IMG/VR virus record: IMGVR_UViG_3300031963_009887
Location: 24,080-88,079 of that record
Origin: a virus
Lineage: Duplodnaviria > Caudoviricetes
Length of the DNA stretch: 64,000 nt
Reading direction: 5' to 3' (one strand)
The notes beneath the pieces are model-generated. The model ran no database searches. It saw only the letters and a program-made list of their open reading frames with translations, and was not told the DNA's origin. Positions 15,760-63,314 of the stretch are shown in pieces. The translations under genes were made by a program, and so were the position numbers. Numbering within the stretch: the first letter of the stretch is position 1; the number at the start of each line of letters is the position of its first letter.

Positions 15760-15783
15760 ATCAACTAACTATATTTATATAAG

Positions 15784-25920: not shown

Positions 25921-25952
25921 TTTGGTTAATTGCGTATTTAGTAGTATCTTTG
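25921..25952 (+). promoter_or_regulatory. Bacteroidota-type promoter TTTG-N20-TATCTTTG
   Basis: Consensus match upstream of the 43-aa ORF. Confidence 0.75.
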
Positions 25953-26427: not shown

Positions 26428-26440
26428 AAAATATAAATAT

Positions 26441-39733: not shown

Positions 39734-39767
39734 TCTTTTGATTAACCCTTTTTTTTGTTTACCTTTG
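39727..39767 (+). promoter_or_regulatory. Terminator hairpin (39727-39756) overlapping a Bacteroidota-type promoter (TTTG 39737-39740; TACCTTTG 39760-39767)
   Basis: gggttaatc-tttt-gattaaccc plus T run; the -33 element lies in the hairpin loop. Confidence 0.7.
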
Positions 39768-52630: not shown

Positions 52631-53494
52631 ATGAACAACTTAGATAACTATTTAAACAAGATTACCACAGGTGATTGTCGTGAAGTAATGAGAGAAATGC
52701 CGGCAAACTCAATTGACCTTATGGTTACATCGCCACCATACGGAGTTGGAATTGCATACGATTCATTTGATGATGACATGAATTTTGAAGCGTATAAGGA
52801 ATTTTCAAGGGAATGGTTGTCAGAAGCATTTAGAGTTTTAAAACCCGATGGAAGATTAGCATTAAACATTCCGTATGAAATTAACCGTCAAGAAAAAGGT
52901 GGAAGAATCTTTATGATTGCAGAACTTTGGAACATCTTGGCGAGTATCGGTTATAAGTTTTACGGTGTTGTTGATTTGGAAGAATCATCGCCACATAGAA
53001 GTAAAACAACTGCGTGGGGTAGTTGGATGAGTCCATCATCACCATACATTTATAATCCAAAAGAGTGTGTGTTGTTGTGTTACAAACAGTTGTCAAAAAA
53101 ACAAACCAAAGGTACACCGCAATGGAAGTCATGGGTTGAAGAAGTTGAAGGTAAAAATAAAACCATGTATGAAAAATCAGATAAAGATGATTTTATCAGT
53201 TTGGTCTATGGACAATGGAATTATTTTGCTGACACAAAACAACAAACCAAGGCAACTTTTTCAATGGACATTCCTGTAAGAGCAATGAAGATTTTGTCTT
53301 ACAAAGAAGACATTGTTATGGACCCTTTCATGGGTTCAGGAACATCAGCAGTTGCTGCTGAGTTTGTTGGAAGAAATTGGGTAGGAATTGAATTGAGTCC
53401 AAATTACACAGAGGTTGCAAACAAACGACTTTTAGAGTACCGAGCCAAGTTACTACAAATGAAACTTGAATTGGAAGAGGTTAGTAAATTCTAA
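52631..53494 (+). CDS. Beta-class N4/N6 DNA methyltransferase
   Basis: TSPPY, KATFSMDIP, VMDPFMGSGTS. Confidence 0.9.
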   Translation: MNNLDNYLNKITTGDCREVMREMPANSIDLMVTSPPYGVGIAYDSFDDDMNFEAYKEFSREWLSEAFRVLKPDGRLALNIPYEINRQEKGGRIFMIAELWNILASIGYKFYGVVDLEESSPHRSKTTAWGSWMSPSSPYIYNPKECVLLCYKQLSKKQTKGTPQWKSWVEEVEGKNKTMYEKSDKDDFISLVYGQWNYFADTKQQTKATFSMDIPVRAMKILSYKEDIVMDPFMGSGTSAVAAEFVGRNWVGIELSPNYTEVANKRLLEYRAKLLQMKLELEEVSKF

Positions 53495-53507
53495 CCTCTT
53501 TTTTTTG
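53475..53507 (+). terminator. Intrinsic terminator
   Basis: aagaggttag-taaatt-ctaacctctt plus T run. Confidence 0.8.
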
Positions 53508-53535
53508 TTTCCGTATATTTATATTAAAAGTTAAT

Positions 53536-54270
53536 ATGGAAAATACGTCAGAAATAGTAGCAGGTCTACAAGAATTACAAAATCAAGTTAAATATTTTCA
53601 CTGGCAAACTAAATCATATGCTCAACACCAAGCTTTGGCTAAAGTATTTGATTCAATTACTGAGTTAATAGATACGTTTGTTGAAACGTTAATGGGTAAA
53701 TATGGTAGACCATCTACCAAAGGTCAGAAATTTGAAATGTTTGATTTGGAAGATGTTAATATTGAAGAATGGACTGGTGGTGTTTGTGATTTATTAATTT
53801 CATTTAGTGATGTATTAGATGATGTACAAGATACTGACCTTTTGAATCTCAGAGATGAAATGTTACAGAATTTTAACCAATTAAAGTATTTATTAACATT
53901 AAAAGAAAATATGAATAAGAAAAAAGTTATTAAATTAAGTGAAAACGATTTATATAGAATTGTTAAGCGAGTTATCAATGAACAAGCGTCAGATTCAAAT
54001 AGAAAAAAATCAATTCAATGTTTTTTAAGTAAAAAAGGTTTATACAAAGGTGAAATAGATGGTTTGATGGGTGAAAAAACTGAAACGGCAATAGAACAAT
54101 ACCAAGTTAACGTTAAAGTGTATCCATCTGATGGAGTTTGGGGACCTGAAACTGAAAAGAAGATGAATGATGCTGATAAAAAAATATTTAAAGCGTGTCA
54201 GGACCAATATGGTGACATGATGGATAAAATTGTTGGTGGAGTATCTAAATTTTTTGGATTGGAGGACTAA
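53536..54270 (+). CDS. Ferritin/Dps-like four-helix domain fused via a VIKLSENDL..VINE linker to a peptidoglycan-binding-like domain
   Basis: FHWQTKSYAQHQAL..IDTFVE..LRDEM; IDGLMGEKTETAIEQYQ..SDGVWGPET. Confidence 0.7.
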   Translation: MENTSEIVAGLQELQNQVKYFHWQTKSYAQHQALAKVFDSITELIDTFVETLMGKYGRPSTKGQKFEMFDLEDVNIEEWTGGVCDLLISFSDVLDDVQDTDLLNLRDEMLQNFNQLKYLLTLKENMNKKKVIKLSENDLYRIVKRVINEQASDSNRKKSIQCFLSKKGLYKGEIDGLMGEKTETAIEQYQVNVKVYPSDGVWGPETEKKMNDADKKIFKACQDQYGDMMDKIVGGVSKFFGLED

Positions 54271-55682
54271 TGGCTAAAACTATCATCAGAGAATCTGGTA
54301 TCCGTGATATCAATGCACTTGCTAAAAGATATCCAAAAGCGGAGATTTACTTCCACCAAGATTTGGATGGAGTAACAACCGCATTGGCAATGAAAAAATA
54401 TCTTGAGGACAATGGTATTAATGTCGTAGATGCTCACATAATTCAATATGGTGACAAGGAGTTCGCTGTTAAAAAGAATGACGCCACAGGTGATGTAATG
54501 CCTGTTCTTGTTGATTTTGCACATGGTAAACCTATGTTCAAGATTCATACTGACCACCACGACAAACAAGTGGGAACTGGATATACAAGTTCAACGTCAT
54601 TTAGAGAGTCACCGTCAAATGTTGCAACAATATCTCAAGTTGTTTCACCAAGAGAAATATTCTCAGATAGTGATATCAGAATTATATCAACGGTTGATGC
54701 TGCTAAGTTTACACAAGCAGGTTTAAAACCAAAAGATGTTATGAATTTCTTATTCAGAATGGACACTGAAAAAGAGTTAAGTAAAAATAAATTTGCGATG
54801 GGATTGGTTTGTAATAAGTTATTATTGGCTTATAAAAACAAACCAGGTTTCTTAGAAGAATTGGTAATGAATGCACAACCATCATTGACAAGTATTCTAA
54901 CCAACATTAAAAGAATTGCAAAAGAAAAGAATTTTGCCACACCAGAAATGATGGCAAAAAACCAAGAAGATTATATTAAGGCTCAAAAGAACAGTCCTAA
55001 TGTAAAATTTGAAGATGGGATTATTATTCAATACGGAGGAGGTAGTATGTTCAAACCAGGTTCATACGATAGATACACGCCATTTGAAAATTATCCTGAA
55101 GCCGACTTTATTGTTATCGCATGGCCAATGGGATTGGTACAAGCGTCTTGTAACCCATATAAAGAAGATAGAGCACTTAAAGGTGTAAACTTAGGTGAGA
55201 TGAAAGATGTTATTGTAAACGGTCTTAAATCTTGGGGTAGTGATAAAATTATCCCTTTGTCAACAATCAAATGGGTTAGTGAATCGTCGAGAGATTTTGG
55301 TTCAGAATCTGTTGGATTTACAAGTACTGACCTAAAAGCATTTTACGGAGATAAATTTAAAGCAGTTGATGGTGGTGAAAAATATTTAGATATGTTAATG
55401 ACATTGATGGATATACCATATGATGAATTAACTGAAGAACAATTAAAAGTATTAGATAAATTTGGTGTTCCAATTGGTGAATTGATTGATGAAAATTCAG
55501 GTGGACACAAATGTATTACAAATATATCAGGTTTGAATTACTACGGAAGAAGTAAAAGAAAACCAAGAAGTAAGGGAGGTTACGATAGAGATGAGGATGA
55601 CGCACCATACGTTGCGTTAACCAAGAACATTCAGAAAAAATTTGTTGATTTGTTAAAGAAAGAAATTAATATGAAATCTTAA
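54270..55682 (+). CDS. DHH-family phosphoesterase-like protein
   Basis: YFHQDLDG, VDFAH, HTDHHD, SGGH. Confidence 0.75.
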   Translation: MAKTIIRESGIRDINALAKRYPKAEIYFHQDLDGVTTALAMKKYLEDNGINVVDAHIIQYGDKEFAVKKNDATGDVMPVLVDFAHGKPMFKIHTDHHDKQVGTGYTSSTSFRESPSNVATISQVVSPREIFSDSDIRIISTVDAAKFTQAGLKPKDVMNFLFRMDTEKELSKNKFAMGLVCNKLLLAYKNKPGFLEELVMNAQPSLTSILTNIKRIAKEKNFATPEMMAKNQEDYIKAQKNSPNVKFEDGIIIQYGGGSMFKPGSYDRYTPFENYPEADFIVIAWPMGLVQASCNPYKEDRALKGVNLGEMKDVIVNGLKSWGSDKIIPLSTIKWVSESSRDFGSESVGFTSTDLKAFYGDKFKAVDGGEKYLDMLMTLMDIPYDELTEEQLKVLDKFGVPIGELIDENSGGHKCITNISGLNYYGRSKRKPRSKGGYDRDEDDAPYVALTKNIQKKFVDLLKKEINMKS

Positions 55683-56019
55683 TCTTTTGACCTTTTTCTA
55701 TACCACACTCATCACAAGTACCACCCGCTAATTCCAAAACATATTTACCATGACCTAAGTAATGTTCACAATCATTTGATGAACACGGTGGACAATTTTT
55801 TTGAATACTTTGTATTGTCATGTCATCATTGATAAAAACAATATCCAACGGGATTATACAATTTTTCATCCAAAAACTTTGTTCTTCATTGTTACCCATC
55901 ATAAATAACATACCATTGAAATCTGAATTAAATCTTTGCCCCATCATTCCTTTTTGAATTGTTTCAGGAGTGACACAAACTCTGATTTTAAACATGTTAT
56001 CATTTACAAATACATTCAT
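55666..56019 (-). CDS. DUF192 (UPF0127) family protein
   Basis: KGMM..GMLF..FWMKNCIIPLDIVFI..YVLEL. Confidence 0.85.
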   Translation of the reverse strand: MNVFVNDNMFKIRVCVTPETIQKGMMGQRFNSDFNGMLFMMGNNEEQSFWMKNCIIPLDIVFINDDMTIQSIQKNCPPCSSNDCEHYLGHGKYVLELAGGTCDECGIEKGQKIKISY

Positions 56020-56040
56020 ACTTATTATAAATATGTTACT

Positions 56041-56442
56041 ATGAAAGAATATGCTGGTATTGTAGTTAGAGTAGATAATAAGTGTTTAATGTGTAAAAGG
56101 GCTTCATTCCATAACTTTTTACCTAACGTATGGTCAATACCATCAGGACACTTAGAAGAAGGGGAAACACCAAGAGATGGTGCAATACGTGAATTTATTG
56201 AGGAAACAAATATGGAAGTAAATAACATTAAATATGTTTCTGCAATTATTAATAGTGATAGAAAAGGTAATCCTGAAAGTAAGATGTATGTTTTTGTAAT
56301 GAACTTATCAGATGAAGTATTACCTAACTTAAAAATAGCTAAAGACGGACATGAACACACAGAGTGTAAATACTTTTCAAAGGACGAATTACCACAAACA
56401 ACTGACAAACTAAAAAAAGTTTTAGAAATTTTGTTGATGTAA
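56041..56442 (+). CDS. NUDIX hydrolase
   Basis: Nudix box SGHLEEGETPRDGAIREFIEET. Confidence 0.9.
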   Translation: MKEYAGIVVRVDNKCLMCKRASFHNFLPNVWSIPSGHLEEGETPRDGAIREFIEETNMEVNNIKYVSAIINSDRKGNPESKMYVFVMNLSDEVLPNLKIAKDGHEHTECKYFSKDELPQTTDKLKKVLEILLM

Positions 56443-56466
56443 TTTGACTTTTCAAAAATAAAGGCA

Positions 56467-56551
56467 TATTTATTTATCACAATCCCAAAAAGATTTATTT
56501 AAAAAGTTTTTTAAAGGTACTTGATTAACTCAAAAACTTTACTTAACTTTG
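56467..56551 (+). promoter_or_regulatory. Dual promoter region: TATTTAT twice (56467-56477) and Bacteroidota-type CTTG-N20-TAACTTTG (56520-56551)
   Basis: Motif matches directly upstream of the ORF-free kilobase. Confidence 0.7.
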
Positions 56552-57500
56552 TAGTCCCATTAGGGAAACGTTCTTTAAATTATGAGTATGTCCAATTCAG
56601 GACAAAAAAAATGGACCCCTCCATTCTAAAGTTCTGAATTGATAACAGACATAATTCGGCGGTTTAGCGTCGATACAAGATAACCCCAGTAATGGGACTA
56701 TAGGGGAGAAAGTACTCAACGGTACAAATATCTCGGTGTCACGAAAGTGGCTCACAACTAAACAAATTACCTACGAATAATTTCTTATGGGCAACAGCTG
56801 AGAGAAGTTATTTATCCTGACCACGTGAGGTGTCAGGGTTGAGATGGAGACATCAACAGGAAAAGGTAAAGGGAATGGTTCGACTCCGCCGCCAAGTGGA
56901 TGTAGGGCTAGGTCACCAATTTATCACAGGTATCCAAGTGGTAACACAACGATATCAAGATAAGTCGTAGTCTTGGCGGATTACAGAAAGGTGAGTGGTA
57001 TTTCCTTCTTCAAAAGAGAAGCTATCCACCTCAGAGCTCATCTTTCATTACACTCACTATGTTGATTTTATGAAAAAATAAAACTACAGAAAAGGAAAAG
57101 CCTCTGAGCGGTTAAACTGAAAGTCACCTAATTCCTTGAACGAAAGTTAACAAGGAAATTGACAGGACCCCAAGTCCTTCAGTTTTGACTAAGAAAGTCC
57201 TAGTACCTGGGCACGGGTTTAGGGAGTCCGCAAGATTCCATAGAGACAAGTAATAGTTGAGTAAGTTTAACCGAAACGATTGATTGACGTAAACAATCGG
57301 TGATGACTTGATACTGATGGCAACATTAGTGGATACGAGAGGAAACCTTAGTCGGGTATAATCTCTACAAAAGACAGGTCAACTAAACGAGTAATCTCAT
57401 CGTTTTAGCCAGAACCCCTTCAAGGATAGCATCCTTGAACCGACTTTGATTAAAGTTTCAAACCCAACCCCACGATAAACCAATTTCGTGGGGTTTTTTA
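56552..57500 (+). ncRNA. Large (about 950 nt) highly structured RNA, GOLLD-like or a new ornate class
   Basis: No ORF in the track, GC-richer than flanks, promoter and terminator; many hairpins with GNRA loops and long-range complementarities (see findings). Confidence 0.8.
57466..57500 (+). terminator. Intrinsic terminator closing the large RNA
   Basis: aaccccacga-N10-tcgtggggtt-tttt. Confidence 0.85.
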
Positions 57501-57532
57501 TTTGGTATTATCAAAAGTTTTTATTATCTTTG
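57501..57532 (+). promoter_or_regulatory. Bacteroidota-type promoter TTTG-N20-TATCTTTG
   Basis: ATG 57537 lies 4 nt after the -7 element. Confidence 0.75.
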
Positions 57533-57536
57533 TTGT

Positions 57537-57806
57537 ATGAATTACCAATTAAGAATGTTCCACCCACAGTATGGCGAGTTAACCACACCAACATTCACTG
57601 ACACAGTTCAGTTCAGAATCTTTTGTAAGATGGTTCAGGGTTGTTTGGCGTTGAAACAAGACCTAACCACATATGATGCTCAGGATTTGTTCATTCACAT
57701 TCCATTTAAGGTTTTGACTGAGTGTGTGATTGTATCAGGGGTTAAGGAACCGATGATGACTTTGGCAGAATACGCTAAGGAAAAATCAAAAGCTGTTAGT
57801 CAATAA
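57537..57806 (+). CDS. Hypothetical protein
   Basis: ORF with its own promoter. Confidence 0.7.
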   Translation: MNYQLRMFHPQYGELTTPTFTDTVQFRIFCKMVQGCLALKQDLTTYDAQDLFIHIPFKVLTECVIVSGVKEPMMTLAEYAKEKSKAVSQ

Positions 57807-58512
57807 CAAACGGACTACTATCCTCTATTTTGATTTCGGGATTAATCATCCCAAGAAATTCACTATCACCATAGTCGGTATCGTAAGTTTCATGGGGATA
57901 ATTCCAAAAATCTTCTTTTAAATGAATTGAGATTTTTTCAGCGTCTTCATCGTTCATGGCATAAAATTCAATATAATATGTGTTATATTCAGTTTGTCTT
58001 CTTTCTTCAGTCCATTCAAATTTATATTCTTTCAATCTTTTAATTGGTGTTGATGATGTAATGGTTTTTCCAATGTTTTCATAAGCACAAAGAATATATT
58101 GAAAAAATGATGATTCACTATAACCACCTGGTAAATTCAAGTAACGTAAAAGACTGCTGAAATGTGCGATTTTAATGTCCATATGTTCACCATTATCATA
58201 ACTGTTTTTTAACTCTTGTAATTCATCAGGGGTATAATTGTCCATAATGTAATCAACAATAAACACTTCTTTTTCAGTTAAAGTTGATGGACCATTTTTT
58301 GACTCAATTAACTTTAATAATGATAACGGCTTAACTTTTGTATCCCTGTTAACCAATTTAAATTGGTCGGTATTATTTAACTCAAAGTTTTGATTTGTAA
58401 AAATATCTCTACCTACCCAAGAACCTTCAACTTTTTCAACCAATTTCAAAACTCTTGAACCTTTTGATTCACAGAATAACACATCGTTCTTTTTTAAATT
58501 TTCGTATCTCAT
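57796..58512 (-). CDS. Hypothetical protein, paralogue of 58517-59254
   Basis: Shared NLKKNDVxFxESKGSRV, KPxSLL, TLTEKEVF and DYGDSxFxGM motifs. Confidence 0.8.
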   Translation of the reverse strand: MRYENLKKNDVLFCESKGSRVLKLVEKVEGSWVGRDIFTNQNFELNNTDQFKLVNRDTKVKPLSLLKLIESKNGPSTLTEKEVFIVDYIMDNYTPDELQELKNSYDNGEHMDIKIAHFSSLLRYLNLPGGYSESSFFQYILCAYENIGKTITSSTPIKRLKEYKFEWTEERRQTEYNTYYIEFYAMNDEDAEKISIHLKEDFWNYPHETYDTDYGDSEFLGMINPEIKIEDSSPFVID

Positions 58513-58516
58513 AATA

Positions 58517-59254
58517 TTATTCTATCACTAATGGTTTACGGTATTGACTAACACCAATTTCTTCAATTTCAATATCTTCCATTCCGATGAAGTCACTATC
58601 ACCATAATCTGCCCAACCAGCGTCGGGGTCATAGTTCCAAAGATTATCAATAATTCCTGATTGCATTTTGGTCATCATATCTAAATCTAATGCTGGAACA
58701 TTTAAAGTCCAATTTTGATATTTTCTTTCATCACTTATTTCAGTGGCTTTTAATTCAAAAAGTTTGAATCTATTAATTTTTGTTGAAGACGATACCTCAG
58801 TATCATAATTTTCAATTGCACAATAAACATATTGTATTAACGCAAAACTGTCGTATTGTGATTTTAACTGTGAGTTTAAAATTTTTAAATAACCTTTTAA
58901 TATATCATCACCACTATTTAAATTACCATTTTCATAAGATTCAATTATTTCGTGTAACGAATTTTCTTCATAAGAACCTTTAAGTTCCTCAACTAAAAAA
59001 ACTTCTTTTTCTGTTAAAGTTGGTGTAATACTTACCCCATTACTTTCAACCAAATTTAACAATGATATTGGTTTTGGTTTGTTTTCAGTTTTAACAACTC
59101 TGAATGTGTCTGATTCAGTGATTGTATCATATTTTTTTGTAAACATATCACCCACAACCCAATGATTATCTTTCTTGGAAATTAACTTAAACACACGAGA
59201 ACCCTTTGACTCTGAAAAGACAACATCATTCTTTTTAAGATTGCTAAAACTCAT
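58517..59254 (-). CDS. Hypothetical protein, paralogue of 57796-58512
   Basis: Same shared motifs; ATG 59254 with TATTTAT 5 nt upstream. Confidence 0.8.
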   Translation of the reverse strand: MSFSNLKKNDVVFSESKGSRVFKLISKKDNHWVVGDMFTKKYDTITESDTFRVVKTENKPKPISLLNLVESNGVSITPTLTEKEVFLVEELKGSYEENSLHEIIESYENGNLNSGDDILKGYLKILNSQLKSQYDSFALIQYVYCAIENYDTEVSSSTKINRFKLFELKATEISDERKYQNWTLNVPALDLDMMTKMQSGIIDNLWNYDPDAGWADYGDSDFIGMEDIEIEEIGVSQYRKPLVIE

Positions 59255-59266
59255 ATTCAATAAATA

Positions 59267-59298
59267 TTTGATTATGTAAAAAGTTTGTTATATCTTTG
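59267..59298 (+). promoter_or_regulatory. Bacteroidota-type promoter TTTG-N20-TATCTTTG, back-to-back with a minus-strand TATTTAT
   Basis: ATG 59303 lies 4 nt downstream. Confidence 0.75.
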
Positions 59299-59302
59299 TA
59301 TT

Positions 59303-59575
59303 ATGAGAGATTATACTATTGATGATATTATGAAATTGAAGATTGAACATCCTTTAGGTGGATATCAATCAAGACTTAATCTTGGTGAGTATGAGGTATC
59401 TGTTGTTGGTGGTAGAGAAAGAGCTTATGGTGATTTTGTTAATACCTTTGAACTTGCTATTTTTGATAAAGATAATAATTTTGTTACCAAAAAATTGGTA
59501 GCATCTGCAGAACATGACGTAGTTGGTTGGTTAGATAAAGAGGAATTGATGGATATCATCAATCAAATTCCTTAA
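59303..59575 (+). CDS. Hypothetical protein
   Basis: 90-aa ORF from ATG 59303. Confidence 0.7.
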   Translation: MRDYTIDDIMKLKIEHPLGGYQSRLNLGEYEVSVVGGRERAYGDFVNTFELAIFDKDNNFVTKKLVASAEHDVVGWLDKEELMDIINQIP

Positions 59576-59675
59576 AGTTTCTTATTTCTTTAAAAAGTAA
59601 GTGGTGGAGTGATTGGCTGATATTCGGTCAGTCCCAAAAAGAAAGGTGGACAATGTCTACCTTTTTTTTATTATT

Positions 59676-60095
59676 ATGAATATGAGTAATATTGATATTG
59701 TTTTGGATTATATAAAAACATTTTATCAGGTAACAGTTATTAAAGGGGAACCAAACATGATTATGTTTCATGATTGCATTGAAATTAAAAATACAGCTCA
59801 GGTTCATTTTGTTGGAAAGGCGTTTGGTTTTGAAATATACTTGGTGTGGGATAAAGCTCAGATATATACTAATATTGACATTTATAAAAAAGAAAGTGCT
59901 GAGGTAGTTGCGGAGTTTGCTCGTAAGATTAAAAATGTTCAAACGCACTCATTTTTAAAATATTTATCAGAAAGTTTAAATAAGTTTGATAAGAAAGTTC
60001 AATTACTTTTAAGAGATGTCCCTGAAGAATTTCCTGGTCTATATGATGACTATGAAATTATGGATGCTCCAATTTATTCAGAATCAATGTCATAG
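59676..60095 (+). CDS. Hypothetical protein
   Basis: ORF track, ATG start chosen. Confidence 0.6.
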   Translation: MNMSNIDIVLDYIKTFYQVTVIKGEPNMIMFHDCIEIKNTAQVHFVGKAFGFEIYLVWDKAQIYTNIDIYKKESAEVVAEFARKIKNVQTHSFLKYLSESLNKFDKKVQLLLRDVPEEFPGLYDDYEIMDAPIYSESMS

Positions 60096-63278: not shown

Positions 63279-63314
63279 TTTGATTTCTGTTTTTTAAATG
63301 CGTATCTTTGCTTC

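Follow-up and report, generated by a model that had tools for sequence, protein, structure and literature searches.

A selected, independent two-domain gene for a GOLLD RNA occupies the 1,095 nt that separate a NUDIX gene (stop at 56442) from the next gene (start at 57537) in the stretch of viral DNA analysed here, a window of 64 kb. The reading that is favoured, to which a probability of roughly 0.95 is assigned, is that of a stand-alone full-length GOLLD gene in a large uncultured phage, whose host would most likely be a member of the Bacteroidota. That the interval encodes an RNA of the GOLLD family is practically beyond doubt, and, judging from the sequence, this RNA is very probably transcribed and folded as described below. 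It is a member of a known family and not a new RNA class. Protein-free cages that exceed the ribosome in size are known for few natural RNAs, GOLLD being one of them, and this locus adds an uncomplicated case without tRNA from a phage lineage of Bacteroidota, in which promoter elements, terminator, linker and a loop-loop contact have been mapped (Table 1).

Table 1. Features mapped in and around the GOLLD gene (positions in the window)
Feature	Position	Strand	Remarks
DHH-family protein gene, 470 aa	54270-55682	+	below Pfam DHH cut-off; DLDG, DHH and GGH motifs by eye
Conserved upstream element TTGACT-N17-TATTTA, candidate phage-type promoter (upstream of two)	56446-56474	+	contains ATATTTAT at 56466-56473
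Bacteroidota-type promoter: -33 CTTG, N20, -7 TAACTTTG	56520-56551	+	read from sequence; predicted start ~56557
Predicted GOLLD transcript, ~940 nt	56557-57499	+	ends inferred from promoter and terminator; ~1,020 nt if counted from the upstream element
GOLLD 5' domain	56571-56988	+	RNAalifold, 18 relatives: 91 pairs, ~13 helices; closing helix 56571-74 with 56985-88
Variable 5'-domain hairpin	56587-56653	+	in MFE fold; contains ATGGA-CCCC-TCCAT, and AATTCAG 56594 with CTGAATT 56634
Hairpin loop CGCCA	56890-56894	+	5' partner of covarying loop-loop (kissing) pairing
Hairpin loop UGGCG	56974-56978	+	3' partner; loop-loop pairing with 56890-56894
Conserved GOLLD 3' domain (RF02032)	56986-57403	+	311.7 bits (gathering 150), E 2.4e-88, model 1-416 of 416, untruncated
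CUCAGAG, bulge of first 3'-domain hairpin	57030-57036	+	pairs with 57102-57108, closes linker
A-rich variable linker, 56 nt	57046-57101	+	aligned to unstructured stretch of Rfam model; length varies in relatives
CUCUGAG	57102-57108	+	partner of 57030-57036
CGGUUAAACU, family pseudoknot 5' strand	57109-57118	+	at the columns of RF02032 marked [[[; 10/10 complementary to 57264-57273
Hairpin ACCU-GGGCAC-GGGU, self-complementary GC mid-loop	57205-57218	+	candidate symmetric kissing loop; Rfam alignment
AGUUUAACCG, family pseudoknot 3' strand	57264-57273	+	partner of 57109-57118
Extra 9-bp hairpin past Rfam model end	57419-57439	+	sub-lineage-specific; present in L001
Intrinsic terminator CCCCACGA, 10-nt loop, UCGUGGGG, U6	57468-57499	+	stem 57468-75 with 57486-93
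89-aa gene	57537-57806	+	always at downstream edge of GOLLD slot

Identity of the RNA and its 3' domain

The interval contains no open reading frame of 80 aa or more and is the sole ORF-free stretch of about 1 kb within the window, as the first-pass annotation, made by a model from the letters alone, had noticed. In five more contigs of this phage, gene calls made independently likewise place nothing in this gap. When the 64-kb window was scanned with Rfam 15, a single family, GOLLD (RF02032), scored above its gathering threshold, and the cmscan alignment keeps essentially all of the helices of the model, with marks for non-standard pair sides at 8 positions only. The models for ROOL, OLE and group I and group II introns gave no match at gathering score in the 64 kb and none at E ≤ 1 between 56000 and 58000. 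A giant, ornate phage RNA, either of GOLLD type or of a new class, had been proposed for this place; the match, which is full-length and high-scoring, confirms the RNA and removes the second option. Other features expected of a GOLLD RNA are also found, namely a length of ~940 nt (~800 nt or more in the family), a non-coding nature and a phage-encoded location. The window contains PHROG matches and the GOLLD relatives are all IMG/VR contigs, and blastn found no match to the RNA among 50,697 phage records of GenBank.

Within the 3' domain, the pairing that closes the linker (57030-36 with 57102-08), already listed as a perfect complement in the first-pass annotation, is supported by covariation. 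It is formed by 7/7 pairs in 25/25 sequences, with compensatory changes at three positions, the variants being CCCGAAG/CTTCGGG, CCTGAAG/CTTCAGG, CTCGAAG/CTTCGAG and CTCAGAG/CTCTGAG. The local hairpins that had been pointed out at 57132, 57313 and 57385/57400 correspond to stems of the Rfam family. The loop at 57209-14 (GGGCAC) reads CGGCCA, CCGCAA, UAGCAA or UGGCCG in relatives and conserves a central GC in all of them. For loop L21a of GOLLD, a GC/CG dinucleotide that bridges chains has been reported (PMC12286853), and by analogy the loop at 57209-14 would be its equivalent.

The RF02032 model represents the universally conserved 3' region only, and the 5' half of the RNA, ~420 nt in length, lies outside it. 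A cage architecture with separate 5' and 3' domains has been described for GOLLD (PMC12286853, PMC12990946), the less conserved 5' region of GOLLD being a separate domain in the cage (PMC12286853). In the portion available of the published GOLLD alignment, which spans the 3' end only, the metagenomic sequence URS00006DBC20 (RNAcentral) closely resembles the 3'-domain consensus of the clade studied here; this resemblance suggests that the clade is already inside the described GOLLD family.

The 5' domain, its covariation and its conservation

Relatives were collected in two steps, first with a degenerate 3'-end pattern run over IMG/VR and then with nhmmer, the query being the whole 1,068-nt interval; this led to ~25 distinct loci. 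These align to the query from position ~4 to ~998, and the 5' half is thus covered. The locus L001, reached through the NUDIX protein, carries the same RNA with 98% identity across all 1,068 nt. The invariant blocks of the 5' domain include CGGCGGTTTAGCGTCG (56657-72) and GGTTCGAC (56877-84), the latter being placed by the consensus fold in a helix strand made up of invariant G-U-rich pairs. This fold speaks neither for nor against the T-loop that the first-pass annotation had suggested at 56877. The motif formed by CGGCGGTTTAGCGTCG followed by AGATAA occurs in at least 96 IMG/VR contigs, some of them up to 297 kb long, and is absent from 185,579 GTDB genomes.

In a tally made separately from RNAalifold, 41 of the 91 pairs of the 5' domain carry compensatory changes, and 98.0% of the cells are paired, as against 33-43% when the pairing is slid; none of 500 shuffles reached the observed values. 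The folding of this half is far more stable than that of shuffled sequences on the plus strand (z -5.4), the minus strand giving z -1.75. The pairing of the first-pass annotation that falls at 56816/56833 is a helix of the consensus fold.

Perfect complementary 7-mers within the RNA number 55, as against 40 ± 8 in shuffles, 7-mers and 8-mers together being barely above chance. A list of complements is therefore no evidence on its own, and covariation alone separates real pairings from accidental ones. By this standard, of the eight long-range complements put forward in the first-pass annotation, whose quoted strings are all present where it had placed them, three are retained (56594/56634, 56889/56972 and the linker-closing pairing mentioned above), the other five being not conserved or in conflict with other structure. 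The stem at 56594/56634, which lies in a hairpin region (56587-56653) of variable length across the clade, shows compensatory changes in L137 and L284. The complement CCGCCAAG at 56889/56972 is a covarying contact and not a nested helix: its core (56890-94 with 56974-78) joins the loops of two hairpins, each of them supported by covariation. In this core, four of the five pairs are compensatory, and 96.7% of the cells are paired, as against 19-63% when slid. The contact may be established within one chain or between chains, both options fitting the sequence. Regarding the discarded complements, the 3' partner of 56552/56690 sits in a conserved, covarying local GNRA hairpin and its 5' partner is absent even from a relative as near as L137; 57114/57178 and 56991/57051 are each incompatible with helices of the Rfam model; and 57023/57329, as well as the pairing of 57256 with either 56713 or 57379, would join an invariant family motif to a segment that is not conserved.

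The RNA is clearly better conserved than its flanks in two of three close relatives. Thus, it is 97-98.5% identical between L001 and the window, with flanking genes at 81-94%, and 85-92% identical in L137, with flanking genes at 65-74%; in L136 it is no better conserved than the flanking genes. The contigs L001, L081 and L135, which represent the nearest relative, 91% identical along 5.8 kb, bear in IMG/VR the name of a giant-virus MAG, GVMAG-S-1017400-15; taking into account that their gene content and promoters are of Bacteroidota-phage type, this filing is probably the result of misbinning.

L284 (ENA ERZ27247994 k141_317877), which aligns to 56427-59804, presents a junction near the boundary between the two domains. 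From 56966 onward its identity to the window is 95-100% per 100-nt bin over 2.8 kb, a part that comprises the 3' domain and 2.4 kb of genes and shows one difference inside the RNA, and across the promoters and the 5' domain identity is 82-89%. Of the 19 pairs that are changed in this contig, 16 keep their pairing. Either recombination at the domain boundary or a chimera produced in metagenome assembly would account for L284. Eight other loci (L172, L175, L176, L200, L201, L203, L205 and L211) have weak nhmmer matches to the 3' domain (23-88 bits) and no match to the 5' domain, and lie 5' of an 89-aa gene; in these loci the slot may hold divergent GOLLDs whose 5' domain is of another kind.

Two explanations other than a GOLLD gene have to be weighed against these data. 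It could be argued that the interval encodes a new giant RNA class with a merely superficial likeness to GOLLD, taking into account that the Rfam model does not reach the 5' half and that none of the invariant 5' blocks of the clade that were searched for occurs in the 5' domain of the marine env-38 GOLLD (sequence from the supplementary files of PMC12286853). However, the 3' half fits the GOLLD model from end to end, at twice the gathering score and with the pseudoknot included, a variable 5' region is an already described property of these RNAs (PMC12286853), and the clade consensus is closely matched by URS00006DBC20 within the accessible part of the published alignment, all of which leaves a new class with hardly any probability. 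It is even harder to believe that the interval is a decayed coding region or a spacer with accidental hairpins. The near-chance number of perfect 7-mer and 8-mer complements would be in keeping with such an origin, whereas the 41 pairs with compensatory substitutions, the Rfam match and a conservation of the RNA equal to or greater than that of the neighbouring genes speak against it.

Comparison with known RNA cages and proposed assembly

The GOLLD gene of the window can be compared with the RNAs of this family for which cages have been described. The env-38 GOLLD (marine, D7 14-mer cage, PDB 9MEE; Kretsch et al. 2025, PMC12286853) shares with it a complete 3' domain with the pseudoknot, a helix-enclosed variable linker, a separate structured 5' domain of ~420 nt, a length above 800 nt and its phage origin; the window hairpin loop with a central self-complementary GC is a candidate counterpart of the L21a reported there. 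In contrast to env-38, the window copy carries an additional hairpin between the 3' domain and the terminator. The 5' 'cap' domains of env-38 and of the clade are assumed, by analogy, to be equivalent.

The GOLLD of S. agalactiae (full-length 12-mer, PDB 9L0R; 10-mer of the 3' domain, 9LMF; PMC12990946) follows the same two-domain plan, and the loop-loop pair that covaries in the window clade has a precedent in the intermolecular kissing loop between L10 and L12' of its 5' domain (PMC12990946). Unlike the window RNA, it is 700 nt long, lacks P9, P11a-c and P21b, and comes from a Gram-positive host (PMC12990946). The GOLLDs of Mycobacterium and mycobacteriophages (Morgado et al. 2020, cited in PMC12990946) belong to the same Rfam family, but they are located in tRNA arrays and can hold a tRNA-Phe inside J13/15, whereas the linker of the window RNA is 56 nt long, A-rich and free of tRNA. 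ROOL, which forms an octameric cage, resembles GOLLD as a large phage-borne RNA that builds protein-free cages; it is unrelated to the window RNA in sequence and fold, and its model has no match in the window.

The association with tRNAs, either as adjacent genes or as a tRNA in the linker, is a frequent, non-defining trait of GOLLD RNAs that is not found here. ARAGORN and Rfam detected 0 tRNAs in the 64-kb window, linker included, and the tRNA models gave no match at E ≤ 1 between 56000 and 58000. Unlike env-38, which sits downstream of a tRNA-Met, 26 related GOLLD loci also have 0 tRNAs in their fetched flanks, which cover a few kb where the contig reaches that far. As tRNAs are absent from the RNA and its surroundings, both in the window and in the clade, the role of the RNA here cannot rely on a tRNA, whether embedded or adjacent. 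Thus, tRNA storage cannot be the general role of GOLLD, and this narrows the functional hypotheses.

On the basis of the cryo-EM structures of the env-38 14-mer and the S. agalactiae 12-mer, it can be proposed that the ~0.95-kb transcript would fold as two domains, a 'cap' from its 5' part and a 'ring' from its 3' part. Through kissing loops and A-minor contacts, ~12-14 such chains would then self-assemble into a closed homo-oligomer of dihedral symmetry, the linker of each chain pointing inwards. By this analogy, the RNA probably forms a closed homo-oligomer; both the central GC loop (57209-14) and the loop-loop pair that covaries in the 5' domain would fit the bridging contacts reported in the env-38 and S. 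agalactiae GOLLDs. No biological role of GOLLD has been established in the literature up to 2026. It could be speculated that the cage or scaffold would sequester a host or phage macromolecule during infection, a role that is considered unlikely. For studies on how cage size is set by variation in the 5' domain, the clade also offers a group of sequences ready for comparison.

Transcription signals and genomic setting

Two candidate elements precede the RNA, one of ATATTTAT type and the other of Bacteroidota type, in agreement with the 'dual promoter' of the first-pass annotation; both are conserved and, from their sequence, would act as promoters. The copy of ATATTTAT at 56466-73, which stands by itself before GOLLD and ~80 nt further upstream than CTTG-N20-TAACTTTG, is nearly invariant in the relatives that reach this position and is kept in L137. 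In the window as a whole, 11 of the 17 copies of ATATTTAT are found 4-20 nt 5' of an ATG on the same strand, 0.46 being expected, and it is likely that this element represents a phage-specific promoter with very short leaders. Copies preceding an ATG are found, for instance, at 15771, 29426, 38422, 46868, 53515 and 62976 on the plus strand, and at 26433, 46613, 56027, 59260 and 62860 on the minus strand. A sigma-70 scanner made no call at TTGACT-N17-TATTTA (56446-56474), and the folding of 56443-56570 is not significant (z -0.36).

At the position aligned with the second element, just 5' of the RNA body, the relatives carry TTTG-N20-TAnnTTTG, which is the Bacteroidota promoter consensus. The strict form, TTTG-N18-20-TAnnTTTG, occurs 13 times in the window, as against 3.6 expected, mostly before genes, and this enrichment points to a Bacteroidota host. 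Sites of this form include 57501-57532, 59267-59298, 63279-63310, 39737-39767 and 25921-25952.

At the other end of the gene, the 'strong terminator' of the first-pass annotation was located as a stem followed by U6 (57468-57499; z -5.1). It was missed by a consensus scanner because its loop is 10 nt long. At the position aligned with it, relatives also have a terminator hairpin and a U-run. In most of them the RNA passes directly into this terminator, without the hairpin at 57419-57439.

The genes in the neighbourhood encode a glutamine-synthetase-like protein, a guanylate kinase, a DNA methyltransferase, a DUF5856 and PG-binding protein, the DHH-family protein, a DUF192 protein (minus strand) and the NUDIX protein. 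In 29 related GOLLD loci, an 89-aa gene is found 3' of the RNA in 23 and a DHH gene 5' of it in 21. The 89-aa family itself is larger, with at least 454 IMG/VR loci. Of 79 sampled 89-aa loci, 37 have a GOLLD directly upstream and 42 do not, and an Rfam check of non-hit loci found the slot without GOLLD in 20/20. The 89-aa gene as an obligate partner of GOLLD was consequently rejected, about half of the sampled loci having no GOLLD upstream. In the loci without GOLLD the 89-aa gene comes right after NUDIX, and the one GOLLD detected in the Rfam check, that of L202, is outside the slot, at ~3.2 kb 5' of the 89-aa gene.

The adjacency of both genes also raises the alternative that the RNA serves the 89-aa gene located 3' of it, as a long structured leader or as a regulator in cis. 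The same-strand arrangement is indeed kept in those 23 of 29 loci even though distant 89-aa proteins are only 34-43% identical to that of the window. However, the strong terminator and a separate Bacteroidota-type promoter (57501-57532) stand in between, the 89-aa gene does without an upstream GOLLD in about half of the 79 loci, and in a relative that is 97% complete the GOLLD is found elsewhere. A leader function is therefore judged very improbable, and a GOLLD gene independent of its neighbours is preferred.

This relative, G001 (290.7 kb), has an empty slot and carries its GOLLD at 283103-283513, ~112 kb away. The block formed by the methyltransferase, DHH, DUF192 (minus strand) and NUDIX genes, followed by GOLLD or nothing and then by the 89-aa gene and c3 (52631-57806 in the window; L135-L213), is shared by dozens of uncultured phages, with the same order with and without the RNA. 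Taking into account that the same block exists in both states and that G001 holds its GOLLD elsewhere, the neighbours reflect lineage synteny and are not obligate partners. Thus, the suggestion of the first-pass annotation that NUDIX, DUF192 and DHH might point to partners is not upheld, and these genes should not be taken as such. GOLLD behaves as a self-contained cassette.

A wider proposal is offered tentatively, being doubtful when taken as a whole. According to it, the clade would be a tRNA-independent lineage of Bacteroidota jumbo-phage GOLLDs (at least 96 IMG/VR contigs), a relocatable cassette with two promoters and a terminator that would be present or absent in the NUDIX/89-aa slot, or lie elsewhere, and whose 5' 'cap' would be a module swapped at the boundary between the domains, of which a chimera of the L284 type would be an example, possibly re-tuning stoichiometry. 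If this were true, the function of the cage would be independent of tRNAs and of any fixed neighbour gene.

Some additional observations concern the genes of the block. The 89-aa protein has no Pfam or PHROG family and no GenBank phage match, and falls only in unnamed Atlas clusters. Its AlphaFold model is confident (pLDDT 83) and of alpha/beta type; a Foldseek search of this model against the PDB gave nothing at E ≤ 0.001, the best row being Rv3208A with an E of 0.39. An ORF of cluster c2 (69-100 aa), lacking in the window and in L001, separates NUDIX from GOLLD in 16 of those 29 GOLLD loci (e.g., L018:4526-4732 and L027:1646-1858). The only GenBank phage relatives of the DHH protein are found in uncultured megaphages of 634-642 kb (LR745206 and LR756502; 39-45% identity). 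A second, shorter DHH-like copy (162-203 aa) is present ~1-2 kb 3' of GOLLD in L102, L123, L039 and L030.
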